DNA of 53,082 nt from Anaerolineales bacterium. Its GTDB lineage: Bacteria; Chloroflexota; Anaerolineae; Anaerolineales; Villigracilaceae. The position numbers and the translations under genes were made by a program. This document shows, piece by piece, positions 4,201-23,900 of the stretch. The stretch spans positions 1 through 53,082 of the forward strand of contig JAOZOM010000001.1 of NCBI GenBank assembly GCA_029933275.1. Direction: 5' to 3'. The number at the start of each line of letters is the position of its first letter. The stretch's first letter is position 1. The notes beneath the pieces were generated by a model, which was not told where the DNA came from, did not search any database, and saw only the letters and a program-made list of their open reading frames with translations.

Positions 4201-5085
4201 AATAAAGACGCAACGTATTACGCAAATCCACTCTTACCGGAAACGCGCGCCGAAGCAGCCATCCCGTTGAAAGTCGGAGAACGGATTTTAGGTGTTTTGG
4301 ATGTCCAAAGTGTAAAGCCTTATGCCTTTCCTGAGGAGATTCTACAAACCCTTAGCATCATCGCCGACCAATTAGCTATTGCGGTAATCAACACCGAACT
4401 TTTTGCTGAAACGCAAGAACATCTTTCACAGCATCGCCTCCTCCATCACATCACCACCTCTGCCGCGTCAGGAACAACACTCGAAGAATCTCTCAGAGGT
4501 GCTGTACAAGGTCTCCAAGTTACCTTAGGTGGAGACCGTGTCGCAATACTTCTGGTTGATAAAAAAGAAGAGAAACTTATTGTTGGTGCAGCTATTGGAT
4601 ATTCAGAGGATGATATTGCTTCTATTGAAATTCCCATCGGAGATGGCGTGACCGGTTGGGTGGCTAGAAACCAGAAACTCTTAAAAATTGATGATACTCA
4701 CACCGACCCGCGTTATATCTCTGTTAGCACCAACACACGTTCTGAGTTAGCAATTCCTTTGACATTCAGAAAAGAATTGCTCGGCGTTTTGAATGTGGAA
4801 AGTGAACTAGCCGCCGCGTATGATGAACACGATGAAGAAATGCTCGGAACGCTCGCCGGTAGTCTTGCTGCCATTATCGCAAATTCTCGTCTACTTCAAC
4901 GGGCACGCCGTCAAGCTGAACGCGAGCGAATGCTATATGAAGTTACCAGCAAAATTCGCCGCTCAACAAATGTCCAAACTATCCTCGCCACCACGGCAAA
5001 AGAAATCACAAAAGCAGTTGGGGCACAACACGCTCAGGTCAAAATTGACGTTCGTCTTGACGATAATACTAACCAGAGAAAATAA
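1204..5085 (+). CDS. Sensor S1: TM - Cache-like ectodomain - TM - HAMP - S-helix - multiple GAF units - conserved tail; no transmitter domain seen
   Basis: Hydrophobic helices at aa ~22-47 and ~315-338 flank a ~265-aa segment. HAMP motif DEIGELAHSFNQMADEL and S-helix VDERTEYI are present. There are several GAF-like units, two of the subtype F(N)(Y/F)YHA.(V/I)F...LP(N/E)T(H/R)AE..IP(I/L)...LGVLDVQS. It ends in QAERERMLYEVTSKIRRSTNVQTILATTAKEI... I found no H-box, GGDEF or EAL motifs. Confidence 0.85.
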   Translation: MIDQKDKTESSPKAKPKFKNRLAYSMALALLMFAVIPVSIMGLAGYLRARSLIEKQVAFQIYNISNSQADAFNKSIKTKNIRLNRISNRPAFLEAAETLIETSSVSDEEILNKEFDAVNRPDGKPIFDEFFLINSEGIIYATSNKTWMGISLTESPDYALLTNGDSATALYNLSPVLPKQLAIFSIEPLKSETGKDLGLLIGLTKGETIRTFLNETTFFNPSTTAYIISANNIYVGIDPYTKQLTAFDPSQEQQGAIYIFSKSPLTGEEAIYHLLNFENNLEVAVVAQAHQIDSINSQMILEVPRKIAFGQLSSLAPFSIYLFLGTLLVMGTVLWVASNRIVKPIHALSDVARNFSAGDWQARASEKRKDEIGELAHSFNQMADELSSLYRTLKYQVDERTEYIRTASDVAQSIVATFNLDELLEKTARLIVERFNYYHAGVFMVGNTGKTAYLKAAHGPAAKEMLKRKHHLDVGSNSIVGWVSANNQPRAASDVDEDAVYFQNELLPNTHAEVGIPISIGDTVLGVLDVQSSHPEAFDEATIAVLVTLSNQLATAVQNVSLFESSDVNLQELDRLYRASREIAQEKTRDGVLEALRHILQDAPFSTVILIPNNQKTLIYSASDPDYNVSQFSLPDEINTPLASIIEPVTGDDNIIDVDSPPHFPRGFIDILKKIGSNAISLLPMTQEGNLEALIVIGARHKAHLTQTAVKPYVNLIEIVAITLDRIKAFEMTERRLTEMEAISITNQATAAARDLNSLYPALHEQVRQVLGEFSFVVALYDDISDTINIPYLYEAGKVGSIAPFPLGEGLTSIIIRTGQPLMIVEDTEKRAAALGAKLVGSPAKSWLGSPLQVQGKIIGAIIIQDTESENSFDENSLRFINTLASQVSGAIYNIQLLENSRKRAIQLESAAEIARDISGSLNLDELLNNAVTLIRERFNFYHASIFLIDPLGEYAIIREATGEAGIQLKRNGHKLAVGSKSIVGYVSNRGENLVIEDTNKDATYYANPLLPETRAEAAIPLKVGERILGVLDVQSVKPYAFPEEILQTLSIIADQLAIAVINTELFAETQEHLSQHRLLHHITTSAASGTTLEESLRGAVQGLQVTLGGDRVAILLVDKKEEKLIVGAAIGYSEDDIASIEIPIGDGVTGWVARNQKLLKIDDTHTDPRYISVSTNTRSELAIPLTFRKELLGVLNVESELAAAYDEHDEEMLGTLAGSLAAIIANSRLLQRARRQAERERMLYEVTSKIRRSTNVQTILATTAKEITKAVGAQHAQVKIDVRLDDNTNQRK

Positions 5086-5088
5086 GTT

Positions 5089-7023
5089 ATGAATAAAGAA
5101 GATCGCCTGTTTAACTATTTAGATAATCAACTCAAGCACTGGAAAGGGAAATATATTGTCTATATTGAATGGGTTGTTATTGCATTGTCTGCCCCAGCAA
5201 GTTTAAGCGCGCTCTTTTATATTTCTCTCAATATCAGTTTAACATCCGAAGCAAATATGCTTCTTATCCGCAGTTTAATTATTACTCTTATTATTGCAGA
5301 CATCATTTCGATTGGGATAATGCAACTACAAACTAGAAGTGCCAGAAAACTTCTAAATTTACAAGGTAATAAAAGTCAATACACAAGAGACGCAACTCTT
5401 GAATTACAAGCATGGAAAGAAATCACCGCCCTCCCGTGGCGGTTTTCGGTAATAACATTAATTGCTACAATTACCCTCATTATTGCTCCCATAGAACTTT
5501 ATATGCTAAATATTGTTGGAATTTCCAATAATGAGGGCATCCACCTTGCTATCGGAGGTCTTCTAGCGGGGATTATTGTGGTAACAATCTACACAATATT
5601 ATTAAATGTGCTCCTCCTCCCTGCTCGCCAAGCTCTGCAACCCGAATCTTTTGAAGATCACGTTGCCGGACTTTCCGGGCTTAAAATCCGAACAAGTTTA
5701 CGCGTTTTAAGTATAACTACCATTGCCATTACTTTGCTAACAATCGCACCGCGGAGCTATCAAGAAGCTGTAAATGCCATGAATGCCGCAGGGTTTGGAG
5801 AAGGTGCAGTCATCCAACTCCGTGTACAATTGGCAACCGTGGCAATTAGTGCGTTTATTATCGGTGTAATTCTCGCAGATTCTTTATCCAGAACGCTGTA
5901 CCGTCCAATTGAACGATTACGACAGGTTATGGAGAAAGTCTCCTTAGGGGACCTAAATCAGCGTGCTACTTTGATTTCGACCGATGAAATAGGAGAGTTA
6001 GCCATTTATTTCAATGCGATGGTCAGCCGCCTCGATAACCTACAAAGCGGACTTGAGCAAGTGATAACCAAACGCACCGAACAACTCAAAGCCACAGCCG
6101 AGGTGGGACGCGTTGTTAGTTCAATTTTAAAGTCTGATGAGCTAATGGAAAAAGTAGTCGGCTTAATTACAGAACGTTTAGGATATTACTATGCCGCTAT
6201 ATTCATCATATCTCCTGACGGATATTGGGCAGAATTAAAAAGTGCAACGGGTACTGCGGGGGAAACGTTAAAAGAAAAAAAACACCGTCTTTCCTTAAGC
6301 GGAAAAAGCATGGTGGGATCTGCAATCAGTTTAAGAGAGGCTCGCATTGCTCATGATGTTGGCAAAGAAGCAACTCGCTTCAATAACCCACTTCTCCCCC
6401 ATACCCGTTCAGAGATTGCTCTCCCGCTCATCGTTGGCGGACATGTTTTGGGCGCACTGGATGCTCAATCGACAGAAGAAAACGCTTTCGATGAAGAAGT
6501 TACCGAAACTTTACAGGGGATGGCAAATCAAGTGGCAATCGCTCTTGAAAATGCTCGCTTATTCCAAGAGACACAAGAAACTCTGAAAGAAATCCGCATC
6601 AACCAAAAGACACAACTTTCAACAGCATGGACTGAGGCTTTAGATACGCAAGGCAATCTTGAGTTTTCAACCGGAGAAAAAGCTTCATCTGAAAAACCTG
6701 CTCTTAATGTCCCTCTGGCTTTGCGAGACCAGATTATTGGCGAGATTACGCTTGAAAATGATGCAGGTTGGACAAGAGAAGACCAAGGCTGGGTAGAGGC
6801 GGTCGCTACACAAGCAGCCCTAGCCCTTGAAAACGCTCGTCTCCTTGAAGAGAGTCAACGAATCGCCTTGCAAGAACGGCTTATCGCTGAAATTACAGGG
6901 AAGATATGGTCATCCAGTACAACGGATGGCATCTTAAAAATAGCTGTAAAAGAACTTGGTAGTGCGCTGGGAGCCAGCGAGGCAATCATTCAATTAGATA
7001 TAGACGATCAGCAGGAAATATAA
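5089..7023 (+). CDS. Sensor S2: polytopic membrane domain - HAMP - S-helix - GAF - truncated-GAF tail; no transmitter
   Basis: Several hydrophobic segments lie between aa ~20 and 270. HAMP DEIGELAIYFNAMVSRL, S-helix ITKRTEQLK and GAF LGYYYAAIFIISPDG...LPHTRSEIALPL...LGALDAQS are present. The tail reads ...ALENARLLEESQRIALQERLIAEITGKIW... The start is 3 nt after the S1 stop. Confidence 0.85.
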   Translation: MNKEDRLFNYLDNQLKHWKGKYIVYIEWVVIALSAPASLSALFYISLNISLTSEANMLLIRSLIITLIIADIISIGIMQLQTRSARKLLNLQGNKSQYTRDATLELQAWKEITALPWRFSVITLIATITLIIAPIELYMLNIVGISNNEGIHLAIGGLLAGIIVVTIYTILLNVLLLPARQALQPESFEDHVAGLSGLKIRTSLRVLSITTIAITLLTIAPRSYQEAVNAMNAAGFGEGAVIQLRVQLATVAISAFIIGVILADSLSRTLYRPIERLRQVMEKVSLGDLNQRATLISTDEIGELAIYFNAMVSRLDNLQSGLEQVITKRTEQLKATAEVGRVVSSILKSDELMEKVVGLITERLGYYYAAIFIISPDGYWAELKSATGTAGETLKEKKHRLSLSGKSMVGSAISLREARIAHDVGKEATRFNNPLLPHTRSEIALPLIVGGHVLGALDAQSTEENAFDEEVTETLQGMANQVAIALENARLFQETQETLKEIRINQKTQLSTAWTEALDTQGNLEFSTGEKASSEKPALNVPLALRDQIIGEITLENDAGWTREDQGWVEAVATQAALALENARLLEESQRIALQERLIAEITGKIWSSSTTDGILKIAVKELGSALGASEAIIQLDIDDQQEI

Positions 7024-8705
7024 TGCCTACAGATAAGCCTTCAAAAAACTCATCCATCACCTCAGGAGAAACAAAACCTAATTGGCGAGAAGAAGTGCTC
7101 AATGGGTTGTTACGCGGCATATTTATTTTTGGTCTGTTTGCGGTGTTAATCTCCACAAAAGCGACCATGAGTGATGCTTCGCTATCTAAACAAGCACAGT
7201 TAACTTTTTCAAGCATTTATATCGCCTCAATACTCATCCTAGGAGCAATCACTTTTGTCCACCGCATTCCTTATGCTTTAAGAGCAGGTGTTTTACTCTT
7301 CCTTTTATATGGACTTGGTCTCTCCGGTCTCACAGAATCTGGGTTAAGCGGCGATGGGCGCATATTTATTTTAGTATTTCCCATTATGGCTGCGATTCTC
7401 TTTGATAAGAGACTCGGTTTTATTACCTTGTTCATAGGCGTAAGCACACTGGCTATCACAGCTTTTGCCTTTTCTAGTGGGAGAATTTACATCCCCGCAG
7501 TGTATTTAGCAAACTCCACCTCCCTAAGTGCTTGGATAAGCGGCAGCGTCGTATTATTATTATTAGCCATTGCAACAATTATCCCAATTACATATTTAAT
7601 TCAAAACCTAGAAATTCAGATCATACAAACAAATGATTTGCTCAAAAGTGTAGAAAGTGAACAAAGAACACTCGAACAAATTGTTGAAGAGCGGACAGAA
7701 GAACTGGAACATAGAGCAAGACAACTTGAAAACGCATCCCAAGTTGCTCATAGCGCACTCGTTTTTCAGAATGTAAGTGAACTTTTATCTAATGTAACTG
7801 ATTTTATTTCAGAAAAGTTTGGCTATTATCACGCTGGAATTTTCTTGCTTGACGATAAGAAAGAATACGCTATTCTACAAGCAGCCTCTTCTGATGGAGG
7901 GAAGAAAATGCTTGGACGCGGGCATCAACTTCGGGTTGGGGGCGAGAGCATCGTTGGTGCTACAGCCGCCGAAAAGCGTCCACATATCGCTCTGGATGTC
8001 GGCGTTGACGCGGTCTTTTTCAACAATCCCGATTTACCGGAAACGCACTCAGAGATGGCTCTTCCGCTTCTTTCTCAAAATAATGTTGTTGGCATTCTCG
8101 ATGTTCAATCCACAAAGATTAAGGCATTTAACCAACACGATCTCGAAATTTTTCAAACGCTCGCAAATCAATTAGCTTTAGCTATTCAAAACGCCCACCT
8201 ACTTGAAGAAACACAGACAAGTATTGCTCAATTGGAAGCTCTTACAGCAAAACAATCACAAGTGGCTTGGCAGGCTCATTTAGAACACCAATCTCATCGA
8301 TACCTTTATACCCCCCTCGGTATAAAGCATCTAAAAAGACAACAACTCTTAAGTTCAGAAGAAAATGATGAGAGTGTTAATATTCCAATCGCCCTTCGCG
8401 GGAAGGCAATCGGAAATATTATGCTAAAAAGATTGTCAAAATCTTGGAGTGGTAAAGAAAAAGCCTTGATTTCGGATATTTCTGAGCAAGTTGGCTTGGC
8501 AATAGAAAATGCCCGATTGGTAGATGAAACCCGCAAACAAGCAACCCAAGACCAACTCGTTTCTGAGTTCTCAACCAAATTACGCGAGACCCTTGATATG
8601 GACACTGTCGTAAAGACAGCCATTGAAGAAATAAAGAAAACATTTAATCTCAAAGAAGTGGAAGTGCGATTAAATACACCCGAAGAAGACGAAGTTGAAA
8701 ATTAA
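7023..8705 (+). CDS. Sensor S3: polytopic membrane domain (GDGRI motif type) - S-helix - GAF - truncated-GAF tail; no HAMP, no transmitter
   Basis: The ATG at 7023 overlaps the S2 TAA (TAATG). ~6 hydrophobic segments include SGDGRIFILVF. Coiled coil/S-helix VEERTEELE and GAF FGYYHAGIFLLDDKKEY...FFNNPDLPETHSEMALPL...VGILDVQS are present. The tail reads ENARLVDETRKQATQDQLVSEFSTKLRE... Confidence 0.85.
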   Translation: MPTDKPSKNSSITSGETKPNWREEVLNGLLRGIFIFGLFAVLISTKATMSDASLSKQAQLTFSSIYIASILILGAITFVHRIPYALRAGVLLFLLYGLGLSGLTESGLSGDGRIFILVFPIMAAILFDKRLGFITLFIGVSTLAITAFAFSSGRIYIPAVYLANSTSLSAWISGSVVLLLLAIATIIPITYLIQNLEIQIIQTNDLLKSVESEQRTLEQIVEERTEELEHRARQLENASQVAHSALVFQNVSELLSNVTDFISEKFGYYHAGIFLLDDKKEYAILQAASSDGGKKMLGRGHQLRVGGESIVGATAAEKRPHIALDVGVDAVFFNNPDLPETHSEMALPLLSQNNVVGILDVQSTKIKAFNQHDLEIFQTLANQLALAIQNAHLLEETQTSIAQLEALTAKQSQVAWQAHLEHQSHRYLYTPLGIKHLKRQQLLSSEENDESVNIPIALRGKAIGNIMLKRLSKSWSGKEKALISDISEQVGLAIENARLVDETRKQATQDQLVSEFSTKLRETLDMDTVVKTAIEEIKKTFNLKEVEVRLNTPEEDEVEN

Positions 8706-8720
8706 GCACTGGAAATTCTC

Positions 8721-11633
8721 ATGACTAAGCAAATTTTACAAAAACCATCATCAGAAGAATCTACTATCAGTAGGCAAACACGTAATGCTTTCTTCACAGC
8801 TATTATATTCGTACTTGCCTCTTTGATTAATTTTGCTGTTTCAGCCACCGTAAGTCTATCTTCAAAAATGATAGTCTCCTATCTAGATTCTGTTGTTACT
8901 TTTTCTTTTTTCATAATAACAATCATTAGCACCTTTCTTATTCGAAAAGGGAAAAAAGAAAAAGGTGTTTGGCTACTCATCATTTCCTTTGTGCTTACCT
9001 TAGCTTTACGCAATGCCCTTACCACTAATTTAGATAAGGTTCTTGGTATTTTAGCTCTTACGACAATCCCCCTCATTGGGATGCTGACTCTAAAACCAGA
9101 AAAATTCAATCTCACTTTAATAACGGGGATTTTCTCTAGTTCTTTTTACGTTGCTTTTAATATTCTTGCATCCCGCTATTTACCACCCTATCGCCAACTT
9201 TCAGAAGATGTTCCGACAATGGTAAGGACTATTACAATTGCTGTTATTGTCATTTCGCTGATTTTTATCATCACTCTCTATCAACAGCACCGCTTTCTGC
9301 TTATCTCATCAAAAATAACTTTGGTGATGGTTTTCTTTGTGCTCTTTCCCATTCTCTTACTCAGTATGGTAGGAGCCGTATCTCTAAGAAAATCTCTAGC
9401 ACCTCGCCAAGAAGTAGAGATGCACATCAAAGCTGCATTTGTTGCAGACAGCGTTGACGTTTTTATTCGAATGAATAAAAATGAAATTAGAGCCAATAGC
9501 CAAATTTCTATTTTTGAAGAATATCTTTCTCTTCCCGATGACGCATCCAATATTGACGAGATAGAGAAACAAGTTTTTGATAACTTATATTCCTTACGCC
9601 GAAAAAACATATCACAAATTAGCTCTTATGCCATTTTAGATATTTCTGGAAAAAACCTCCTTGATACTACTTCTGAAAATATAGGGAATGATGAAAGTGA
9701 GACAAATTATTTCATCCAAACCCAAAGAACTGGTTTACCTTTTGTTTCAGATATTATCAGAGACCCTACTTCTAATAATTATTTTCTATACTTTAGTGCG
9801 CCCATATACAGTGCAACCACTGGAGAAATGATCGGCATTATCCGCTCAGAATATCGTATCTCTGCTCTGCAAGAATATATCAATAATTATATGGAGATAG
9901 AAGAAGCTAATGATAAAAAGATTTTTGTAGCTCTCCTAACCGAGAAAGAAGTGACTCCAATAGACGATAAAGACCCTTCATCTGTTTATCTTATCTTGAG
10001 AAATAGTGAAAACCCAGATTTCAATCTAAAATCAATCACGCCTCTCACAACCAATATCATCACCCCCTTACAAATTACACACCTTCTCCCTAGCGGGAGT
10101 ACGGCTCAATTATCTTTAGAAGTACCTGACTTTGATGAAGGTTTGCGTAACCGTTCGGTCGCCTCTGTTTTTGAAGCACAAGCATTTCCTAGAGAAAATA
10201 AATTTAATGCCCTTCAAGACGTAATCGCAACCGCCGATATTACAGAGGCTTCTCTCCCCTGGATTATTGTTATTTCTCAAGACCTCAAAACATTCAATGC
10301 ACCTTTCCAGCGACAAAATAACACAAACACACTCCTAGCCATTCTCATCGCCATCACCGCTGCTGTTTTAGCCTATTTTGGGAGTTCATATCTCACAAAA
10401 CCTCTTTTATATCTCGCCAACACAGCTGAGCAAGTAGCAAAGGGAGATTTGGGCGCACGCGCAAAAGTGAATAGCGAAGATGAACTCGGCATATTGGGCA
10501 ATGCTTTCAATAGCATGACAGACCAACTCAACGCCTTAATTACAACACTTGAAGATCGCGTTACGGAACGTACCCAAGACCTAGAGAGAAGCTCTCAGCA
10601 TCTTCGCGCAGCGGTTGAAGTTGGCAAAGCAGCCGCATCCTTACGAAGTCTTGACGAGTTACTTTCTCAAACAACCGAACTGATTAATAAACAATTTGGT
10701 TTCTATCACGCAGGCATCTTTCTGATTGACACCTACGGAAAATATGCTGTGCTTAAAGCGGCAAATAGCAGTGGAGGACGTAGAATGCTCGCCCGCGCGC
10801 ATAAACTCAAAGTCGGAGCAGAAGGTATTGTAGGATACGTTACCCAGACCGGAGAAGCCCGTATCGCTCTTGACGTTGGACAGGATGCCGTTTTCTTTAA
10901 CAACCCTGACCTCCCACAGACTCGCTCCGAAATGGCTCTCCCCCTCATCGCCGGTGGAAAGATTCTTGGTGCGCTAGATATTCAAAGCACAGAAGGTGAA
11001 GCTTTTACAGAGGAAGATACAATCACCTTGCAGGTTTTGGCAGATCAAATTGCAATTGCCATCGAAAATGCTCGTCTCTTTGAAGAAAGCCGAAAGACTC
11101 TAGTAGCAACCCAACGAGCTTATGGCGAGCAAAGCCTTATCGGTTGGCAAGAACTCATTCATCAAGAGAAAAATTATGGCTATCGCAGCAGTAGCGATGG
11201 CAATATTTACCCTATACAAGAAAAAACTAACGAAACTCTCGCTCAAACAATAGAAGAAAATCAAACCAATCTTGACGAAAATGATTTGGTTGCCAATATC
11301 CCCATTACAGTTCGAGGAAAAGCTGTTGGCGCGATTCGCTTAGTAAAGCCAGATAATGCCCAATTATGGACGCAACAAGATTTAGCCTTGGCAGAAGTAC
11401 TAACCACTGAACTCAGCCGAGCTATGGATAGTGCGCGTCTCTTTGATGAGACGAGACAGCAAGCTGATCGAGAACGCGTTGTTGGTGAAATTGCCAATAA
11501 AATGCAAGAAACAATGAACGTAGAATCAGTTGTTCGCTTAGCGGCTGACGAACTCTATAAACTACTAGACCTAGAACTAATTACCATTTATCTTAACGCT
11601 GAAGATGATAAAGGAAAAGAGGAGACCGCATGA
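8721..11633 (+). CDS. Sensor S4: polytopic N-terminus - large Cache-like ectodomain - TM - HAMP - S-helix - GAF - truncated-GAF tail; no transmitter
   Basis: Hydrophobic segments span aa ~20-215. The ectodomain has a dCache-like stretch (YFIQTQRTGLPFVSDII...YFLYFSAPIYS..GEMIGIIRSEY). A TM helix sits near aa 545-565. HAMP DELGILGNAFNSMTDQL, S-helix VTERTQDLE and GAF FGFYHAGIFLIDTYGKY...FFNNPDLPQTRSEMALPL...LGALDIQS are present. The tail reads DSARLFDETRQQADRERVVGEIANKMQE... Confidence 0.85.
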   Translation: MTKQILQKPSSEESTISRQTRNAFFTAIIFVLASLINFAVSATVSLSSKMIVSYLDSVVTFSFFIITIISTFLIRKGKKEKGVWLLIISFVLTLALRNALTTNLDKVLGILALTTIPLIGMLTLKPEKFNLTLITGIFSSSFYVAFNILASRYLPPYRQLSEDVPTMVRTITIAVIVISLIFIITLYQQHRFLLISSKITLVMVFFVLFPILLLSMVGAVSLRKSLAPRQEVEMHIKAAFVADSVDVFIRMNKNEIRANSQISIFEEYLSLPDDASNIDEIEKQVFDNLYSLRRKNISQISSYAILDISGKNLLDTTSENIGNDESETNYFIQTQRTGLPFVSDIIRDPTSNNYFLYFSAPIYSATTGEMIGIIRSEYRISALQEYINNYMEIEEANDKKIFVALLTEKEVTPIDDKDPSSVYLILRNSENPDFNLKSITPLTTNIITPLQITHLLPSGSTAQLSLEVPDFDEGLRNRSVASVFEAQAFPRENKFNALQDVIATADITEASLPWIIVISQDLKTFNAPFQRQNNTNTLLAILIAITAAVLAYFGSSYLTKPLLYLANTAEQVAKGDLGARAKVNSEDELGILGNAFNSMTDQLNALITTLEDRVTERTQDLERSSQHLRAAVEVGKAAASLRSLDELLSQTTELINKQFGFYHAGIFLIDTYGKYAVLKAANSSGGRRMLARAHKLKVGAEGIVGYVTQTGEARIALDVGQDAVFFNNPDLPQTRSEMALPLIAGGKILGALDIQSTEGEAFTEEDTITLQVLADQIAIAIENARLFEESRKTLVATQRAYGEQSLIGWQELIHQEKNYGYRSSSDGNIYPIQEKTNETLAQTIEENQTNLDENDLVANIPITVRGKAVGAIRLVKPDNAQLWTQQDLALAEVLTTELSRAMDSARLFDETRQQADRERVVGEIANKMQETMNVESVVRLAADELYKLLDLELITIYLNAEDDKGKEETA

Positions 11634-13294
11634 TATCTCTCCCGACCTCCCAACCACAGAAAAATCCAGACGCTATAAAAGTTTGGCAGGAAACCGTTTT
11701 TAATAACATCGCAAAATTTATCGGCATTGCGGGAAGCGCAGTTTACTTAATCTATGTGGCTCTAAATTATCAAAAAACGAGTCCTGCACTTATCTTGGTT
11801 TATACAATTGCCTATTTGTTGGTTTTGGGAGCAGCCTTCGTCCTGCGCGTACCCATGATGTATCGAGTGATAATTTTTGCCTCGATGGTTTTAGCTATTG
11901 GTATTTCTGCTTCACTTGAAAGTGCCGCTGTAGGCGATGGACGCATTTGGTTCATCTTATCTGCATTTTTCGCTGTAGCTTTTTTGGGGCGAAGAGCTGG
12001 ATTATTTTTCGTCTTCCTAATTTCTATTATCTGGGGAGTATTAGGTTATCTTTTTACCTCAGAAATCATCCCACAACCTGAAGTAGCGCAATACTCTTTC
12101 TCCATTTGGGGAGGGACTACAGTTACACTTTTCGCTGTTGCGTTGATTATAATTTTAACAATCAATGCTCTTTTGGTTAACCTAGGTCAAAATATAGAAA
12201 AAAGCGATGCCTTAGCACAAAAATCTAAAGAACAAGCACGGCAAGTCGAAACACAAAAAATAGCCCTAGAACGACGGGCAAATGCTCTAGAAGCATCTGC
12301 TCGAATTAGCCGTCAGATAGCCTCTATAACCTTGCATCAAGATATATTGAATGAAGCACCAAAGCTTTTTCGTGAAGAATTTTCTTTGAACAGCGTCTCT
12401 ATTTTCTTGTTGAATACAGAAAATATGCTTCGGTTGACATCCTGTAGTGGTTGGAATGAGCAAGCCAAACCCACGCGTGACTACGTCCTATCCCTTGATA
12501 AAGATATCGCGGGGATGGCTATCCTAAATGATCGAGCTTATTCCGATACCGATACCGAAGTCAAATTAGAAGTAGCTCTTCCTGAAACACAATCTTATTC
12601 CGTTATTCCACTGCGTGGACGTGATAAAACGCTCGGCGTTTTTATTTTACAAAGTGAATCTCCCTCAGCTTTTGGCGCAGAACGTCTTTCTATTTTACAG
12701 ATGCTTGTCAATCACGTTGCTATCCTTCTTGAAAATGCCGATTTATTAGTGCAAAAAGAACATGCCTTAGAAGCCGAAAGACGTGCTTATGGAGAAATTG
12801 CTCAAACAGATTGGAAAGATTTTATAAAGTCTCAAAATTATGCCGGTTATAGGCGGGACGAGAAAGGTCTGACACTCACTTCTACTAAACCGTATCTTCC
12901 GGAAGAGAAACGGGTAGAAGCTGAACAGGTTCCTATTAGAATTCGAGGCAAAATTATCGGGCATATTGATGCGCACAAAGCTAAAAATAGAGCTTGGACT
13001 GCCTCTGAAAAAGAGTTGCTGCATATTTTAGCTTCACGCTTGGAAACAGCGATGGATAGTGCGCGTCTTTATCAAGATTCGCAACAACGAGTTGAACGAG
13101 AGCGGATTATTAGTGAAACCTCTGCCCAAATACGAGAAAGTTTAGATATTGAAAGCGTGCTTGAAACAGCTGCTCGTGAATTGAGAAACGCTTTGGATCT
13201 CTCAGAAGCAGAAATTTGGATCAATGCAGAAAATATACAAGGAATGGATAACACACCATCCATAAACCTCGAGAAAGAAGATAAAAAATCGTGA
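11630..13294 (+). CDS. Sensor S5: polytopic membrane domain (GDGRI motif type) - coiled coil - divergent GAF - truncated-GAF tail; no transmitter
   Basis: ATGA overlap with the S4 stop. The membrane domain shares VGDGRIWFILS with S3. The GAF is divergent (FSLNSVSIFLLNTENM...LPETQSYSVIPL...LGVFILQS). The tail reads DSARLYQDSQQRVERERIISETSAQIRESLDIESVLETAARELR... Confidence 0.8.
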   Translation: MISLPTSQPQKNPDAIKVWQETVFNNIAKFIGIAGSAVYLIYVALNYQKTSPALILVYTIAYLLVLGAAFVLRVPMMYRVIIFASMVLAIGISASLESAAVGDGRIWFILSAFFAVAFLGRRAGLFFVFLISIIWGVLGYLFTSEIIPQPEVAQYSFSIWGGTTVTLFAVALIIILTINALLVNLGQNIEKSDALAQKSKEQARQVETQKIALERRANALEASARISRQIASITLHQDILNEAPKLFREEFSLNSVSIFLLNTENMLRLTSCSGWNEQAKPTRDYVLSLDKDIAGMAILNDRAYSDTDTEVKLEVALPETQSYSVIPLRGRDKTLGVFILQSESPSAFGAERLSILQMLVNHVAILLENADLLVQKEHALEAERRAYGEIAQTDWKDFIKSQNYAGYRRDEKGLTLTSTKPYLPEEKRVEAEQVPIRIRGKIIGHIDAHKAKNRAWTASEKELLHILASRLETAMDSARLYQDSQQRVERERIISETSAQIRESLDIESVLETAARELRNALDLSEAEIWINAENIQGMDNTPSINLEKEDKKS

Positions 13295-13319
13295 TACCCA
13301 TGGTTATAGGAAGATACCG

Positions 13320-16162: not shown

Positions 16163-16175
16163 TGGAGGTTTCCTC

Positions 16176-18383
16176 GTGATTGAACGCATGATGAATTTTT
16201 GGCAAGGCAGTATCAAAACACGCCTAATCGGCTATTTCATGTTGCTTGCCCTTACTATAGCCAGCGTAGGACCCTTCCTCACCTTTACTTACTCGAAAAA
16301 AGCATTAGAAACATCGGTAATTAATCGTTTACACACCGCAACCACCCTAAAAGAGTCTGAATTAAATCGCTGGGTCTCTGACCGTGAAAAGGATATAACA
16401 CTTTTATCGCAAGAACCTGCATTACTTATTCAAGCAGAAATTCTACTCTCAGCGAAAACCTCTGATCCTTTCTACTCTCCCTCTTATCAAAATTTATCCG
16501 CTTATTTTCAAAACATTCTAAACTATAACGATAATTTTTCTGAAATCTTTCTTCTTACTGACGTAGGGGGAAAAATTGTCTTATCAACAAACCATGAACA
16601 AGAAGGAGAATATCGCGTTACCGATAAATATTTCACCGAAGGTCGTCTTGCACTCTACTCGCAACATATTTACCCTTCTCCAACGACCGGTAAACCGATT
16701 ATGACCATTGCCATTCCCGTTATCAACAGAAATGGTCAACATATTGGCGTTTTAGCAGCAAATCTCAATATGAAAAAACTAGATGAAATTATTCTCGAGC
16801 GGGCTGGATTAGGGAAAAGCGGCGAAACTTATCTCGTTGATCGATTTAATAGCTTTGTATCCGCAACAAAATATGGAGAAAACAAATTTCCACGTGGAGT
16901 CCATACAACAGGAATTGACGCAGCCCTCTCAGGAGAAGATGGAGCAGGACTATATCTAAACTATGAAGATATTCCTGTTGTAGGTGTTTATCAATGGGTG
17001 GACGGACAAGAAATTGCTCTCCTGGCAGAAATTAGTCAAGACGAAGCCTTCGCTCTTGCCCGAGAGTTGACTTTAAAAATTCTACTAATCGGTTTGGCTT
17101 CAGTCCTACTTGCAGGCGTTGGGGTCTACTTTGTTGCACAACAAATCACTCGCCCTATTCTTGCAATCACAGCAACAGCAACAGAAATTGCAGGTGGAGA
17201 CCTTAGCCAATCTGCGCCAGTACTCACAAAAGATGAAATCGGCATTTTAGCACAGTCTTTTAACAGCGTCACAACAAGAGTCAGAGAATTAATTAATACG
17301 CTCGAAGAGCGCGTCGAAGAACGTACCCGTGCGCTCAAACTGCATACAACTTATCTCAAAGGCGCAGCTGAGGTAAGCCGAGCCGCAGCAACATTCACCG
17401 ATTCTGAACAACTTTCCCGTCAAGTAGTCGAACTAATTCGAGAGTATTTTGATTTCTATTATGTTGGACTTTTCCTTGTTGATAAAAACAGAAAATATAC
17501 CATTTTAAAGGCAGGCTCAGGGAAAGAAGGCGAAAGAATGCTTGCCGAAAATTACCGTCTAAAAATTGATGAGGGGATGATTGGATGGGCAATTCAAAAT
17601 GAAAAACCGCGTATTGCTTCAGATATAAGCAAGGATACCGTTCGCAAAAACGACTCTGGTTTGTCTAAAACACGATCAGAAGCCGCATTGCCGTTACGCT
17701 CACGAGGACACGTATTTGGCGCACTAACGGTACAAAGCAATGAGGCAAATGCCTTCACATCGCAAATCATCACGACTCTGCAAACAATGGCAGACCAAAT
17801 CGCGGTCGCGTTCGATAACGCCGAGCTTCTTGCCAAAAGTGAAGCTGCTTTAGAGGCAGAACGGCGTGCCTACGGCGAATTTAGTAACCAATCTTGGCGA
17901 GCATTAATCCAAGCTGGTGAAATTCCAACTTATAAGGTCAATACAGAAGGAGTCACAGAGACAATTCCCCGCGAAGAAAACCCAGAAGAGATCAAAGCCA
18001 TCCACGAAGGAAAAATCATCCAAAAAGAGGACAAATCAATTTTACTCCCCATCAAAAGTCATGGGAAAGTTCTCGGTGGCATTCGCATTACACAAAAAAA
18101 CGAAAGCGAAAAATGGACAAAAGAACAAATTCAATTAGCCGAAACACTCGCTGAACAACTCAGTGTAGCCTTAGAAAGTGCCCGTCTCTTTGAAGAAACA
18201 CAACGCAAAGCGCAGCGAGAAGCAATTATCTCTGATATCTCCACAAAAATTGGTGCTTCTATTCAAATGGATTCCATCATTCAAACCACAGTCAAAGAAC
18301 TTGGCGATGCCCTAAACGTACCTGAAATTGCCTTTCGCTTAACAGGACCACAAAAATCCGATATGCAAAGTGAAGTTGCTTAG
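16176..18383 (+). CDS. Sensor S7: TM - Cache-like ectodomain - TM - HAMP - S-helix - GAF - truncated-GAF tail; no transmitter
   Basis: I prefer the GTG at 16176, which has GGAGG (16164-16168) 7 nt upstream. The ORF-track start at 16125 overlaps the preceding gene. Cache-like stretch SQHIYPSPTTGKPIMTIAIPV..NGQHIGVLAANLN...GETYLVD, HAMP DEIGILAQSFNSVTTRV, S-helix VEERTRALK and GAF FDFYYVGLFLVDKNRKY...LSKTRSEAALPL...FGALTVQS are present. The tail reads ESARLFEETQRKAQREAIISDISTKIG... Confidence 0.85.
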   Translation: MIERMMNFWQGSIKTRLIGYFMLLALTIASVGPFLTFTYSKKALETSVINRLHTATTLKESELNRWVSDREKDITLLSQEPALLIQAEILLSAKTSDPFYSPSYQNLSAYFQNILNYNDNFSEIFLLTDVGGKIVLSTNHEQEGEYRVTDKYFTEGRLALYSQHIYPSPTTGKPIMTIAIPVINRNGQHIGVLAANLNMKKLDEIILERAGLGKSGETYLVDRFNSFVSATKYGENKFPRGVHTTGIDAALSGEDGAGLYLNYEDIPVVGVYQWVDGQEIALLAEISQDEAFALARELTLKILLIGLASVLLAGVGVYFVAQQITRPILAITATATEIAGGDLSQSAPVLTKDEIGILAQSFNSVTTRVRELINTLEERVEERTRALKLHTTYLKGAAEVSRAAATFTDSEQLSRQVVELIREYFDFYYVGLFLVDKNRKYTILKAGSGKEGERMLAENYRLKIDEGMIGWAIQNEKPRIASDISKDTVRKNDSGLSKTRSEAALPLRSRGHVFGALTVQSNEANAFTSQIITTLQTMADQIAVAFDNAELLAKSEAALEAERRAYGEFSNQSWRALIQAGEIPTYKVNTEGVTETIPREENPEEIKAIHEGKIIQKEDKSILLPIKSHGKVLGGIRITQKNESEKWTKEQIQLAETLAEQLSVALESARLFEETQRKAQREAIISDISTKIGASIQMDSIIQTTVKELGDALNVPEIAFRLTGPQKSDMQSEVA

Positions 18384-18397
18384 CTAAGGAAAGAACC

Positions 18398-20065
18398 ATG
18401 CTAAAAATCTTAAAAAAGATATTATTTCCACCGGTTTTTGAAGACCAAGAGCGCACCAAGATTGCACAATTTATAAATGCAATTGTCTATGTAAGCATTC
18501 TTCTATTAGGATTGATCATCCTATCTGTAGGCAATCTTCAATCAACAACAAGCCTAGTGCTTGGCTCGCTTATTTTCGTAATGATTGGCATTCAAATCTT
18601 TATGCGTACCGGGCGAGTTCGCTTATCTGCCATATTATTAATCGGACTAACATGGTTCGCAATGAGCTATATGGCTTGGGAAGCAGACGGCATCCGCAAC
18701 GCCTCGCTTATTGCTTATCTCATTTTAATCTTCTTGACGAGCTTATTAGGCAGTCTCCGCCTATTTATCTCATTTACCGCCCTGACCATTATCTCACTTT
18801 GGGTCCTAGTTTACGCCGAACTAAAGGGGATAATAGCCCCCACCCTTGATACCCCTACTCACCTAGCACGCGATTTCTCCGCCATTTTTATCCTCATTGC
18901 AGTCCTTGTCTACCTCACACTTACCAATCTTAACAAAGCCTTATCCGCTTCAAAAGAAAACGAAAATAAGCTCTTACTACACAATCAAGAACTCACGCAA
19001 TTTCAAGATGGATTAGAAAAACTCGTGAACGAACGCACATCTGAACTGGAAGAAAATTCGAAAAAATTGCAAACACGAGCAATGCAACTTCAAGCAATAT
19101 CAGAAGTATCACAAACTATAGCGTTAGTACAAAATCAAGATCTTCTTTTACCTGAAATCACAAATTTAATTAGCGAACGCTTTGATTTTTACCATACCGG
19201 CATTTTTTTAATCAGCAAAGATGAAAAGTTCGCCACGCTCCACGCAAGCAATAGCCCTGGCGGCAAGGAAATGTTAGCGCATGGACATCAATTAGAAATA
19301 GGCAAAAAAGGCATTGTTGGGCGTGTCGCTCAAGATGGAAAAACCCGCATCGCTCTTGACGTTGGCGAGGATGCCACTTATTTCGATAACCCCGATCTCC
19401 CCGAAACCCGCTCAGAGATGGCACTTCCGCTAAAGGTGAAAAATAAAATCATCGGAGTACTAGATGTGCAAAGTAAACGAAAAAATGTCTTCTCTCAAGA
19501 AGATATCGAAATTTTTGAAGCCCTTGCAAATCAGGTTGCTATCGCTATAGAAAACACACGTCTGGCAGAAGAAACACAAAAAGCACTCGAAGAAGCTCGT
19601 TCGATTTCTCGTCAATATATCCACCAAGCATGGACTCAACTAGCAGCAACACAGCAACAGAAAGGCTACCGCTACACAGAGAAAAAGCTTCATCCCCTTT
19701 CAAAGGATAGTGAAAACTTCATAGGATCCAAAAGTGACATCATCTCAATCCCCGTGCAATTACGCGAAGAAACAATCGGGGTTCTCGAAGTCACCAGAGC
19801 CGATTCATCACAAACGCTAGATGAAGACACATTAAATCTAATTCAATCTGTAGTCAATCGTTTTGCCCTAGCCCTAGAAAACGCCCGTCTTCTCGAAGAA
19901 ACCTCCCGCCGTGCAGGACGCGAACGTCTCGTTTCGGACATCACCACAAAGATTCGTAGCACGAACAATCCTCAAGAGATGATACAAACAGCTTTGGACG
20001 AACTCAAGCAAGCTTTGGGTGCAAGTAAAATTGAATTGGCAACCACAATGCCAGAGGTAGATTAA
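18398..20065 (+). CDS. Sensor S8: polytopic membrane domain (PPxFE motif type) - S-helix - GAF - truncated-GAF tail; no transmitter
   Basis: AAGGAAAG RBS upstream. The N-terminus ILFPPVFEDQERTKIAQFINAIVYV parallels S6. S-helix VNERTSELE and GAF FDFYHTGIFLISKDEKF...YFDNPDLPETRSEMALPL...IGVLDVQS are present. The tail reads ENARLLEETSRRAGRERLVSDITTKIRS... Confidence 0.85.
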   Translation: MLKILKKILFPPVFEDQERTKIAQFINAIVYVSILLLGLIILSVGNLQSTTSLVLGSLIFVMIGIQIFMRTGRVRLSAILLIGLTWFAMSYMAWEADGIRNASLIAYLILIFLTSLLGSLRLFISFTALTIISLWVLVYAELKGIIAPTLDTPTHLARDFSAIFILIAVLVYLTLTNLNKALSASKENENKLLLHNQELTQFQDGLEKLVNERTSELEENSKKLQTRAMQLQAISEVSQTIALVQNQDLLLPEITNLISERFDFYHTGIFLISKDEKFATLHASNSPGGKEMLAHGHQLEIGKKGIVGRVAQDGKTRIALDVGEDATYFDNPDLPETRSEMALPLKVKNKIIGVLDVQSKRKNVFSQEDIEIFEALANQVAIAIENTRLAEETQKALEEARSISRQYIHQAWTQLAATQQQKGYRYTEKKLHPLSKDSENFIGSKSDIISIPVQLREETIGVLEVTRADSSQTLDEDTLNLIQSVVNRFALALENARLLEETSRRAGRERLVSDITTKIRSTNNPQEMIQTALDELKQALGASKIELATTMPEVD

Positions 20066-20137
20066 CTAAAAAATGTCAAAGAGAATTAACCGTAAATATA
20101 TGGCAACCCAGACCAAGGTCAGAGAGCGAGGCGAATT

Positions 20138-20926
20138 ATGGCTTATGTAATCGCAATTTCAAATGAAAAAGGCGGTGTCGCAAAAACAACGACCGCTTTA
20201 TCCCTCGGTGCAACCTTAGCCGAAAAAGGATACCAAGTCTTATTAATTGATTTGGACGCACAAGCAAATCTAACGCTGGCTCTAGGGTTTGAACCCGGCG
20301 GGGCAACTTTGACCTCGAGTGATATTTTGCTCGAGAATGTCCCGCTCGAAAATGTTTGGCAAAAAAGCGAGATCGAGCGTTTGGAAATTGTTCCCTCAAG
20401 CAAAAAAATGGAACGCGCTGAACAACTTTTACCCATTCACCTTAACTATGCTACTCGCCTTGCCGATGCTATTTTCGCCTCGCACCCCATGAAATACGAT
20501 TTCGTGGTTATTGATTGCCCTCCGGCTCTTGGTGCCGTTACATTGAATGCCTTAAACGCGGCAAATCTTCTCATTATTCCCACACAGGCAGAGTATTTTT
20601 CAGCCTATGCGCTACGAAATATGATGACACTTGTCCGAAAAGTACGCAGTAGCAACAACCCCCCATTAGCCTACCGCATTTTGATTACGATGCTAGATCG
20701 CCGCAATCGCTCTCACCGTACCATCCAAACCCAACTAGAAAGCACTTTCGGTGATGGGCTTTTCAAAAGCGTTGTAGAAATTGATACTAAGTTACGAGAA
20801 AGCCCCATACTTGGCTTACCTATCACCGCATATAAATCGAATACGCGTGGTGCTGAACAATATCGCGTTTTGGCTCAGGAGTTAATTGAATATGTCAAAG
20901 AAACAGATCAACAACCGTCTCAATAA
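20138..20926 (+). CDS. Orphan ParA/MinD/Soj-family P-loop ATPase
   Basis: Deviant Walker A SNEKGGVAKTTT with signature Lys, LIDLDAQANLT, and Walker B-like FVVIDCPP. 262 aa. No parB-like gene is nearby. Confidence 0.85.
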   Translation: MAYVIAISNEKGGVAKTTTALSLGATLAEKGYQVLLIDLDAQANLTLALGFEPGGATLTSSDILLENVPLENVWQKSEIERLEIVPSSKKMERAEQLLPIHLNYATRLADAIFASHPMKYDFVVIDCPPALGAVTLNALNAANLLIIPTQAEYFSAYALRNMMTLVRKVRSSNNPPLAYRILITMLDRRNRSHRTIQTQLESTFGDGLFKSVVEIDTKLRESPILGLPITAYKSNTRGAEQYRVLAQELIEYVKETDQQPSQ

Positions 20927-23900
20927 ACTCTTTGACGATATCAAAGAGGAAGAGAAGGCGACCAAGCGACCACAGCGCAAACCCAAACTCGGTGGCACAC
21001 GAAAATTACCGCAATTAGACCTAACGCTATCTTCTGAACAGCATCGAAAAACTGAAGTTGAGACTCTCGATATTCAGGTGGATGTAACCGATTCATACGC
21101 GACGATGAGCCTGCCTCTGCGTGTGGACGCAGAATCTTGGGCAACACTCCAAATTCTGGACGAAACCGCTGGTAGACAGTGGAGTACAGAAGAGCAGATG
21201 CTCGTGCGCCAAGTAACAGAACAATTGGAGCTTGCTCTTGAAAACGCGCACCTATTTCAAGAAACACAGGAGCAAAGTGAAGAACAGGCTCTTATCAATG
21301 AAATCGTCACAACAATTGCAGGCTCAGTTGATACAGAAGAAAATCTACAGTTCATAGCCCAGCATATTCAAATAATTGCCGGTTCATATGGCGCAAGCGC
21401 GACCATGCCGAACTACCAAAGTATGACCGCCACCATCACCAGCTACCGTTTTACGGACAAGAAGGTAAATATCTCTCGTGATAGCCTCCTGCTCAAATCG
21501 CTTGGAATTACCACCGTAATTCAAGAAAGCGGCGGGGCTGTTGTTGTAAAAGACATCGCTAATAACCCGATGGCTGCCGCAATCAAAGATAGCTTTCTTG
21601 CCCGTAAAATTCAAAGTGCGGTTATTTTCCCCTTGATGGCTGGAGATAATTTGCTGGGGCTAATGAGTGCTGATTTTAAAGAGAAAGAGCCTCTTATCTC
21701 AGATAAGAAAATCAAACTGATTAGCACAATCCTGTTGCAGGCAAGTACTTCTATTGAAAGAGCAAACCTTTATCAAGAATCCCAACAGCGCACAGAAGAA
21801 TTAGCTTTGATCAACAAAATTGTTACCGAAGTTTCCAGTTCTTTGGATATGCAAAGGAATTTACAATTAATTGCAAAGGAAATTTTTGCCATAAGCTCTG
21901 CCCTTCAAGTTAGCGTTACCCTCCTCGATGAGGAGAAAGAAAATCTCGTATTGGTTGCAGACTGCCCTGAATCTTTGGAAGACCGAGGCTTGAAAATCCC
22001 CCTTGCAAGTAACCCTGCCGGTAGAGAAGTGATGGAAACACAGAAACCATTGCTTATTGAAAATATCCAAACCAATCCCGCTACTGTCGGGATTAGAGAT
22101 GTTATGAAGGCACGCGGTGCCGATAGTTTAATCATCTTCCCCATGTTTGCCGGAAATAAAACGATAGGTACATTTGGCGTAGATTTTGAAGCTTCTACAA
22201 TAACCTTACCTCAGGATAAAATCGACTTAATTCAAACCATTCTTCTTCAAGCCAGCACGTCGATTGAAACAGCTCGTTTCTTCAAAGAGACTCAATTAAG
22301 CGAGGCTCGCGCTCGCGTCATCGTGCAGAATGCGCCGGAATCCATCGTGATGATTGATATGGAAACAGGTTTGTTTACAGAGCCAAATGATAACGCATTG
22401 CGCTTATATGGTCTCAGCAAAGAAGAATTGCTAAAAGCCGGTCCCGCTGATCTCAGCCCTCCCACGCAACCAAATGGCCGTCCATCGGCAGAAATGGCTG
22501 CCGAAAAAATGCAAGAAGCTCTGGAAGGTGATGCGCCCGTCTTCGAATGGACTCACCTTCACGCAAAAGGCAATGAAATTTTCTGTGAGGTCCGCTTGGT
22601 ACGCCTCCCCGATGCCTCTCGAACTCTCATTCGCGCGAGTATCGTTGATATTGCTGAGCGTAAATATAACGAACTTTTGCAAATAGCAGTATCCAATATT
22701 TCTAACGCCGCGTTGAGTGCACTCGATCTACAAGAGTTGATTCGCGAAATCCATCAAATTATTGAGACTTTGATGCCCGCAGATAATTTTTATCTTGCGC
22801 TATACGATGAAGTACGCGACTTGCTCACCTTCCCTTACTATGTTGATGAATTTGATACGGCATGGGAACCACAAAAACCAGGTAGAGGTTTAACCGGCTA
22901 CGTTCTACAAACAGGGAAACCGCTCCTCGCAACCCAAAATGTGATTAACACTCTTGAAAGAAGCGGCGAAGTTGAGTTGATGGGCCCAAAGGGAAACGAT
23001 TGGATTGGCGTTCCCTTAAAGAGTGGTGAAAAATCTATCGGCGTGATGGTTGTACAAACTTATGATGAAAATATTAGTCTTACAGAACAACATCGCGATA
23101 CTCTCGCTTTTGTAGGCAGACAGGTCGCCTCCGCACTGGAGAGCAAGCAATCGGAATTAGAACTTCGCGCACTTTTCTCTGCAATGGATGATGTGATTTT
23201 TATCGTAGATAAAGATACCCGCTACCTCCGCATTGCCCCAACTAACCCCGCTGGTCTCTACCGCCCTCCCGATGAATTACTGGGAAAACGGATGGACGAG
23301 ATTCTCCCCAAAGAAATCAGTGGATACTTCCACGATGCTATTAATCGGGCTCTAGAAGGAAAAGAAACAGTTAATATCGAATATTCACTTGAAATTGACG
23401 GAAAAAATGTCTGGTTTTATGCCAGTCTTTCAAAACTAGCGGAAAACCAAGTTTATTGGATAGCCAGAAACATTACTGAACGGAAACAAGCCGAACGCCA
23501 AGTAGAGAGGCTTAGCAATGCTGTTGAGCAGTCCCTAGATGGGATGGCAATCGCGAGTATGGATGGTAAGATCGAGTTCGTTAATCCAGCCTGGGCTAAA
23601 ATGCACGGCTACGATAATCCAACAGATCTCATCGGAAAACCACTTGCTCTTTTCCATACAGAAAATCAACTTGAAAAGGAAGTGAACACCTTCAACGAGA
23701 TAGTAAGAACTGAGGGCTCCAATCAAGGAGAAGTGGGACACAAACGCAAAGATGGCTCAATTTTCCCCACATGGATGACCGTTGGTATTCTAAAATCGGT
23801 AGACGATACCCCTCTGGCACTTGTTGCCTCGGCACAAGATATTACAGACCGCAAAAAATCTGAACTGGCTCTACGCCGCCAAAATGAATATATGGCAGCA

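Follow-up and report, generated by a model that had tools for sequence, protein, structure and literature searches.

Membrane proteins that combine HAMP and GAF domains and carry no output domain are common in genome annotations, and the route by which they signal is usually unknown. How could such sensors pass on what they detect? The question is raised eight times over by a contig of an Anaerolineales bacterium (Chloroflexota; Villigracilaceae; GenBank assembly GCA_029933275.1, contig JAOZOM010000001.1), of which positions 1 to 53,082 were analysed; this whole stretch of 53,082 nucleotides is called the window below. A row of genes on one strand (1204-25895, +) encodes eight sensors, S1 to S8, then a ParA/MinD-type ATPase and then a hybrid histidine kinase. 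An earlier note, made from the letters of the window, had drawn attention to incomplete GAF domains at the ends of the sensors and at the start of the kinase. Following it up, we describe as new a conserved ending of output-less GAF sensors which, in the majority of clusters, is accompanied by one soluble kinase with a complementary start. The recurrence of this layout across Anaerolineae, which are abundant in sludge, sediments and groundwater, suggests a plug-and-socket link of many sensors with one kinase.

The sensors share a C-terminal tail derived from the start of a GAF domain

The sensors are encoded on the forward strand at 1204-5085 (S1), 5089-7023 (S2), 7023-8705 (S3), 8721-11633 (S4), 11630-13294 (S5), 13320-15014 (S6), 16125-18383 (S7) and 18398-20065 (S8). 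By Pfam they consist of membrane or Cache inputs (MASE11, dCache), HAMP and GAF domains, S1 being a dCache-HAMP-4xGAF membrane sensor with two transmembrane (TM) segments and S7 a dCache-HAMP sensor, and hydrophobic or TM segments were found in all eight. The Pfam scan detected no output domain in S1-S8, neither HisKA nor HATPase_c nor a receiver, which bears out the claim that they are output-less.

Each sensor closes with a segment that we call tail b, located on the forward strand at 4912-5082 (S1), 6859-7020 (S2), 8535-8702 (S3), 11457-11630 (S4), 13085-13291 (S5), 14820-15011 (S6), 18204-18380 (S7) and 19907-20062 (S8). The evidence is a hidden Markov model (HMM) of the tails for S1-S5, S7 and S8, joined by a Protein Data Bank (PDB) profile search for S2-S5, S7 and S8, and an AlphaFold2 model for S6. 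These ranges and that of the kinase stub described below translate to the peptides quoted in the earlier note (9/9).

Tail b alone had no match in Pfam. A profile of 52 positions built from 29 tails, by contrast, matched the N-terminal helices and strand 1 of solved phytochrome/cyanobacteriochrome-class GAF domains in the PDB (best match 6oap 138-181, E 4.5e-13; 8w26 13-54, E 1.2e-10; further N-termini in 6bhn, 2lb5, 3oov, 8k9o, 6xhg, 6ozb, 6uv8, 5zoh and 3w2z), and the tails bear the signature ...RERLVS.IT.KIR.tlD...vLqTAv.ELr..Lg..rV.v of the N-termini of this class. On this homology, tail b is identified as the opening helices (1-2) and first strand of such a GAF, the earlier note having proposed these parts of a GAF. 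Compared with the sensors' own full GAF by hhalign, it aligned weakly though in register (columns 3-48, E 0.002, probability 13%), and it gave no match when compared with the reduced GAF described below over that domain's N-terminal half. On the tail side there is thus no support for the idea that tail and kinase stub are a split copy of the reduced GAF. A resemblance of the tail to the dimerization and histidine phosphotransfer (DHp) region of kinases ('LVSDITxKIRS' to 'FLANMSHELRT') was likewise rejected: no HisKA match appeared even at E 10, and the PDB search returned GAF N-termini only.

In an AlphaFold2 model that covers S6 from its GAF up to the C-terminus (mean predicted local distance difference test score (pLDDT) 85, 127-row alignment), the closing helix runs unbroken over 46 residues (255-300) and is followed by a turn and a further helix (304-318). 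The strand-like terminal segment 'ETKVWIAPE' stays unpaired in this monomer model, in which the tail block has pLDDT values of 78, 72, 79 and 75 over residues 291-330 and then falls below 50.

A reduced GAF domain precedes the tail in seven sensors

Between the full GAF and tail b lies a piece, piece (a), that the earlier note had described as only the last third of a GAF. Alone it indeed matches positions ~85-133 only of the 133-position Pfam GAF profile (PF01590 / PF13185), with scores of 29.1 bits in S7 and 25.1 bits in the kinase (cut-off 22.4), and it bears the 'R.W(S/T)..E' beginning of the closing helix that is found in phytochrome/cyanobacteriochrome-class GAFs. Profile matching thus relates piece (a) by homology to the two strands and the closing helix that make up the last third of a GAF. 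In sensor alignments, the 40-70 residues separating it from the full GAF contain an invariant Trp and a conserved 'GYRY..G' hairpin, and linker and piece (a) together aligned to a full GAF at 99.1% probability by hhalign, confidently in the C-terminal half only.

The S6 model places after the full GAF a helix of 52 residues (137-188) and then a compact five-stranded domain (strands 193-198, 201-205, 222-224, 229-236 and 239-247) with one short helix (211-217), the block of residues 191-260 having pLDDT 69-94. From the secondary-structure string of this model, we read the compact domain as a reduced, pocket-less GAF that lacks the central helix-strand-helix of the ligand pocket. Measured between helix ends it spans 100-133 amino acids (aa), where a full GAF spans 163, and is thus 30-60 aa shorter. 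A complete GAF fold (~150 aa) has a sheet of six strands with N- and C-terminal helices at its flanks; the reduced form has five strands. Reduced GAFs of this kind are encoded on the forward strand at 6577-6858 (S2; linker helix, hairpin and piece (a), from alignments and the hhalign match), 8217-8534 (S3), 11094-11456 (S4) and 12761-13084 (S5), the last three by alignment and hhalign, at 14466-14819 (S6, AlphaFold2 model), and at 17844-18203 (S7) and 19580-19906 (S8), both by alignment and Pfam. S1 has tail b only and no reduced GAF, its spacing of 164 aa indicating that a full GAF stands directly before the tail.

Piece (a) of the sensors is therefore no fragment, since it forms part of a whole reduced domain; among the sensor pieces only tail b, to which nothing is added downstream, is a true domain fragment. 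A bilin-binding pocket with its Cys-bearing region was not found in these parts, the tail ending after strand 1 and the reduced GAF being devoid of the central region. Stand-alone small proteins consisting of piece (a) alone were also sought; the matches proved to be gene-call fragments with frameshifted ends.

The kinase begins with the last third of a GAF domain

The hybrid kinase gene (20886-25895, +) encodes a soluble protein of 1669 aa, and its true start is likely the ATG at 20892. By Pfam the order of parts after the N-terminal stub is two GAFs, three PAS domains, a GAF, HisKA (1179-1246), HATPase_c (1293-1400) and two Response_reg stretches; no TM segment was found. The stub itself, a beta hairpin and helix corresponding to piece (a), is encoded at 21099-21269 (+) and covers positions 89-133 of the 133 in the Pfam GAF profile. 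A profile of 22 kinase orthologues aligned with the 56 residues that close solved GAFs (DevS 2w3d 97-152, E 3e-7), and by this comparison the stub is GAF strands 5-6 with helix 5. Its resemblance to piece (a) of the sensors (hhalign 99.4%, score 91.5, E 4.6e-21) scored higher than that to the last third of full GAFs (65.8).

Thirty-six kinases encoded directly after the ParA-like gene were aligned, and 33 of them, the window kinase included, share one N-terminal plan. It opens with a basic motif, MPKKKxIxKRLDKLFxDIxPEE, which in the window is the conserved basic helix MSKKQINNRLNKLFDDIKEEE at 20892-20963 (+), also predicted by AlphaFold2; a poorly conserved Pro/Ala/Lys-rich stretch follows, and then the near-invariant '...SLAFQxGxxxWATLQVxDE...RxW(S/T)xxEQLLVKQVxDQLSLALENARLFQETQ'. 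The domain behind the stub varies, being a GAF in some orthologues (L010) and a PAS in others (L003, L026). The statement that the stub runs into a complete GAF thus holds for the window and not for the family as a whole, and retention of the stub in front of either domain makes it an independent module.

The AlphaFold2 model of the kinase N-terminus (mean pLDDT 76.7) was built on a shallow 25-row alignment, because homologue searches gave few usable sequences (four proteins, and 21 fragments of which most were frameshifted or partial). It shows a helix at residues 3-24 (pLDDT ~82), disorder at 25-62, strands at 70-77 and 83-90, a helix of 46 residues (99-144) and then the first GAF. In Foldseek searches this region superposed on the tandem GAFs of PDE2A (246 columns) and PDE5A (251 columns), as though all but the last hairpin of the kinase's first GAF had been removed. 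In these models neither end is a self-sufficient domain, since the strand of the tail is unpaired and the stub is only a two-stranded hairpin.

Taken together, the profile comparisons place the N-terminal third of a GAF on the sensors and the C-terminal third on the kinase, so that the incomplete parts are complementary. The earlier idea of one incomplete module common to sensors and kinase is upheld as to GAF homology and fails as to shared incompleteness, piece (a) of the sensors belonging to a complete reduced GAF. Nor is this the only kinase of the window, as had been supposed, HisKA/HATPase proteins being encoded also at 29380-30963 (-), 30960-33581 (-) and 36251-37480 (+).

Tail, kinase stub and gene order are conserved in Anaerolineae

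A search with the post-GAF region returned 312 proteins at E <1e-5, from Anaerolineae or Chloroflexi wherever the source was named, and all 120 of the 120 matches listed end just beyond the strand of tail b. Using an S8-subfamily alignment we collected 80 genome loci, 78 of which are titled Anaerolineae, Chloroflexota or unclassified 'bacterium' metagenome-assembled genomes. When these were searched with the tail-b HMM, as the earlier note had suggested, 373 proteins with a C-terminal tail were found, far more than chance would give; among open reading frames (ORFs) ending with a stop codon, 369 of 428 matches lay within 40 residues of the C-terminus. The tail is preceded by a reduced GAF in 343 cases (spacing 100-133 aa) and by an ordinary full GAF in 17, S1 among them (spacing ~163 aa). 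Over 328 proteins the mean pairwise identity was 0.48 for the GAF, 0.36 for piece (a), 0.34 for tail b and 0.18 for linker and hairpin, and the excess of the tail over the adjacent linker indicates that it is under selection.

Three strong tail-b matches (E 1e-19 to 1e-24) are not terminal. One lies at residues 540-597 of a 1491-aa ORF (L071 883-5358), possibly two fused sensor genes or the product of a sequencing frameshift, and in the two others (L055 2317-4263 and L042 8567-10489) the ORF extends 60-77 residues past the tail. Weaker internal matches, including S1 1066-1121 and kinase 293-350, correspond to GAF-GAF junctions. A joint profile of pieces (a) and (b), searched against 1.84 billion representative proteins, gave 8-21 matches per giant poly-GAF protein, one per GAF-GAF junction. 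These giant proteins (P0146-P0295; 1,400-3,950 aa, 8-21 tandem GAF domains) end in tail b in many cases, for instance P0204, P0231 and P0235, and in HisKA in P0148; P0204 is apparently without membrane segments. The extensions of the tails are net negative in 64% (mean -1.3), a weak trend only, and the idea that acidic sensor C-termini pair electrostatically with the basic N-terminus of the kinase was set aside.

In about 45 loci the ParA-like gene and then the gene of the hybrid kinase come after an array of tail-bearing sensors, with S8 orthologues directly before the ParA-like gene (~45 loci). Next in order come a fusion of a pyridoxal phosphate (PLP)-dependent enzyme with a receiver, an EamA transporter, and a convergent set of an OmpR-type regulator and two kinases; the PLP-receiver enzyme and EamA stand directly 3' of the kinase in about 40 loci. 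A locus of 20 kb holds 4-9 sensors, and the overlapping L044 and L045, from one contig, together give 10. The kinase-type stub is present in about 40 of the ~45 kinases behind the ParA-like gene; the other kinases of the loci and of the window (three others in the window) all lack it.

A proposed docking model for sensors and kinase

We infer from this arrangement that the sensors signal through the soluble kinase, with the tail as the contact element. Read in this way, S1-S8 would be output-less membrane co-sensors of the downstream kinase and tail b their docking element, a reading that we hold tentatively, as having somewhat less than an even chance. A sensor consists of a membrane or Cache input, in some cases HAMP, a GAF, the reduced pocket-less GAF and the terminal stub, a phytochrome-class GAF that breaks off behind strand 1 and so comprises the junction helix, helix 1 and that strand. 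The anchorless kinase presents a basic helix, a disordered tether, the GAF last third and a helix continuing into its first sensory domain. Strand 1 of a GAF fold is paired with the last strand, and both the N- and the C-terminal helices are packed against one face of the fold. Because these elements adjoin, the sensor and kinase stubs correspond to contiguous parts of one half-domain, and it is this adjacency in the intact GAF that makes a docking model attractive, as does the position of the kinase stub where the first signalling helix of the kinase begins. The tail would act as the output element by docking with helix 1 and strand 1 onto the orphan hairpin-helix of the kinase, and a ligand-driven shift of the sensor's signalling helix would pass into the first signalling helix of the kinase. 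Docked stubs would reconstitute a composite half-GAF heading that helix, and several sensors would compete for, or share, one kinase socket. The fullest form of the model, a split-GAF code in which the stubs of up to 10 sensors insert into the stub of one kinase that is positioned by the ParA-like ATPase, we regard as unlikely as it stands.

The ParA-like protein (20138-20926, +) is assigned by Pfam (AAA_31 1.2e-45; also CbiA, MipZ and ParA) and has a deviant Walker A, 'EKGGVAKTT'. The end of its gene overlaps the start of the kinase gene, and the first 15 residues of the kinase carry a net charge of +4. Partners of ParA/MinD proteins, including TlpT for PpfA, follow an N-terminal-extension rule (PMC7993993). 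Given the conserved basic helix, the disordered tether and the gene overlap, the kinase may be a cargo positioned by the ParA-like ATPase, which in the model would probably act via the basic N-terminal helix.

Several findings weigh against docking of tail on stub. Five loci that are more distant have, behind the array, a kinase that lacks the stub and is a membrane protein (MASE-like or Cache-HAMP) or otherwise different, and the sensors of these loci keep their tails, with lower scores (52.8 vs 63.9 bits). Among the paralogues of the window the tail is no better kept than the main GAF (identity 0.33 vs 0.44). Nor is tail b exclusive to sensor arrays, since soluble poly-GAF proteins also end in it, and its few near-invariant residues are kept in complete cyanobacteriochrome GAFs as well, so that they may reflect constraints of the fold instead of an interface.

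Much of this would be expected if both fragments were structural caps, which we rank as the main rival, though a somewhat doubtful one. The tail would then be a helical-hairpin cap, stabilizing the end of the dimeric, coiled-coil signalling helix where a GAF array breaks off with no output domain, the hairpin-helix of the kinase would cap the first signalling helix of that protein, and sensors and kinase would communicate by other surfaces or by diffusible or phosphorelay links. The S6 model agrees with this, helix 304-318 folding back after the 46-residue helix as a helix-turn-helix, and so do tails that adjoin stub-less kinases, the occurrence of tail b in soluble poly-GAF proteins, maybe outside such arrays, and the residues common to tails and intact cyanobacteriochrome GAF N-termini. 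A cap, however, has no need for a conserved amphipathic strand-like segment (of the V-E-V-R-L type) that is unpaired in the monomer model, and the caps explain neither the constant arrangement of output-less sensors in front of one soluble kinase nor the restriction of the stub to that kinase. The unpaired strand could instead serve contacts among the sensors: tails may mediate putative homo- or hetero-oligomerization into a mixed receptor lattice, their strands pairing with one another or with the reduced GAF of a neighbour, and the kinase being recruited otherwise, for example by GAF-GAF contacts or the ParA-like protein. The occurrence of up to 10 paralogous sensors with an identical tail type in a cluster fits such a lattice, as does the persistence of tails where the kinase has no stub; since the specific, conserved kinase stub is left without explanation, we consider this decidedly unlikely.

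Two further explanations fare worse. The earlier note had offered a circularly permuted mini-GAF as an alternative, and tail b could in principle supply helix 1 and strand 1 to the reduced GAF, in the chain or, by domain swapping, across the dimer. The hhalign placement of linker and piece (a) at GAF columns 46-164 and of tail b at columns 3-48 would suit this, being the order to be expected from duplication and truncation; the N-terminal part of the alignment, however, has near-zero confidence. In the AlphaFold2 monomer the reduced GAF has an N-terminal hairpin of its own, and its five-stranded sheet is complete with no part taken from the tail. The tail lies beyond the continuous 46-residue helix with its strand not paired, and the 17 proteins with a tail after a full GAF, S1 included, lack nothing that a tail could supply. 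A permutation is accordingly very improbable. That the pieces are evolutionary debris, functionless leftovers of recombination or truncation in GAF arrays, can hardly be credited. Pieces (a) and (b) do make up a generic GAF-GAF junction, as such leftovers might; 373 copies ending at one point, the conservation of the tail above that of its linker, and a kinase stub near-invariant in about 33 orthologues effectively refute the idea.

Neighbouring genes

The sensor array also contains a gene for a Leu/Ile/Val-type periplasmic binding protein (15011-16162, +; Pfam Peripla_BP_6, 1.4e-61). Its 3' end overlaps the start of S7 (16125), and the protein may deliver a ligand to S7; the arrays in L029, L053 and L060 are likewise flanked by binding-protein genes. 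Just 5' of the first sensor, at 322-711, a stand-alone receiver-domain protein of 129 aa is encoded. Behind the hybrid kinase follow the PLP-dependent enzyme (threonine-synthase-like, Pfam PALP) fused to a receiver domain (25900-27579) and the EamA-family transporter (27585-28535), which may provide a phosphorylation-controlled metabolic or export output, not a transcriptional one. Neither the PALP-receiver protein nor the ParA-like protein was found to contain a TM segment. On the opposite strand lie the OmpR-type response regulator (28643-29416, -), a receiver-GAF-kinase (29380-30963, -) and a GAF-GAF-kinase (30960-33581, -); this convergent set (28643-33581, -) suggests a multi-step phosphorelay around the cluster. 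The protein at 36251-37480 (+) is a further HisKA/HATPase protein.

Relation to known systems and significance

The closest structural relatives are tandem-GAF proteins (PDE2A 3ibj, PDE5A 3lfv, CyaB2 1ykd) and knotless phytochromes (8w26, 4bwi), with whose domain junction pieces (a) and (b) are colinear; the joint profile aligns to the GAF-to-PHY junction of the latter (8w26 152-251, 4bwi 143-244), and both AlphaFold2 models, that of S6 and that of the kinase, superpose on tandem GAFs over 240-350 columns. The continuous helix of tandem GAFs is present in both models (S6 137-188 and 255-300, kinase 99-144). In tandem GAFs the junction is flanked by two complete domains; here the second domain of the sensors stops after strand 1, with no domain downstream, and the first domain of the kinase begins at strand 5, most of the upstream domain being absent. 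We found no solved or described protein that ends or starts with such GAF fragments. Tail b bears the N-terminal signature of phytochrome/cyanobacteriochrome-class GAFs (dual-sensor kinase 6oap, 6bhn, 2lb5, 3w2z); unlike these, the stub and reduced GAF of the sensors have no chromophore pocket.

Accessory co-sensors that act on a histidine kinase in trans by contact are represented by the GAF protein NreA with NreB and by RetS with GacS. Those pairs use complete domains, a whole GAF or DHp heterodimerization, whereas here complementary fragments and 8-10 sensors per kinase are seen. Chemoreceptor arrays, with their methyl-accepting chemotaxis proteins (MCPs), one CheA and a ParA-like ParC or PpfA, offer an analogy only. 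As in such arrays, many output-less TM sensors of the HAMP type carry a conserved distal element, and there is one soluble kinase together with a ParA-like ATPase, the presumed partner of which is extended at its N-terminus by a basic stretch. The cluster differs from them in having no MCP signalling domain, CheW or CheA and in using a HisKA-type hybrid kinase, with docking as a hypothesis.

For the tail and the kinase N-terminus there was no Pfam model, and full-text literature searches returned no description. Their parts are ordinary GAF pieces, so the novelty lies in the arrangement. With its sensors, ParA-like ATPase, hybrid kinase, PLP-receiver enzyme, EamA exporter and convergent kinase/OmpR set, the conserved cluster constitutes an uncharacterized regulatory unit, and a domain fragment on every sensor with its complement on a co-encoded soluble kinase provides a clade-wide candidate for the missing output of such sensors. 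Even if the fragments do not dock, the stubs define how GAF arrays terminate and mark an unannotated, easily recognized family signature. If they do, this would be a new wiring of many inputs into one two-component kinase by split-domain complementation, and a portable design for synthetic signalling. Should the plug-and-socket link prove true, two-component signalling in Chloroflexota would have a many-to-one input resembling that of chemoreceptor arrays.

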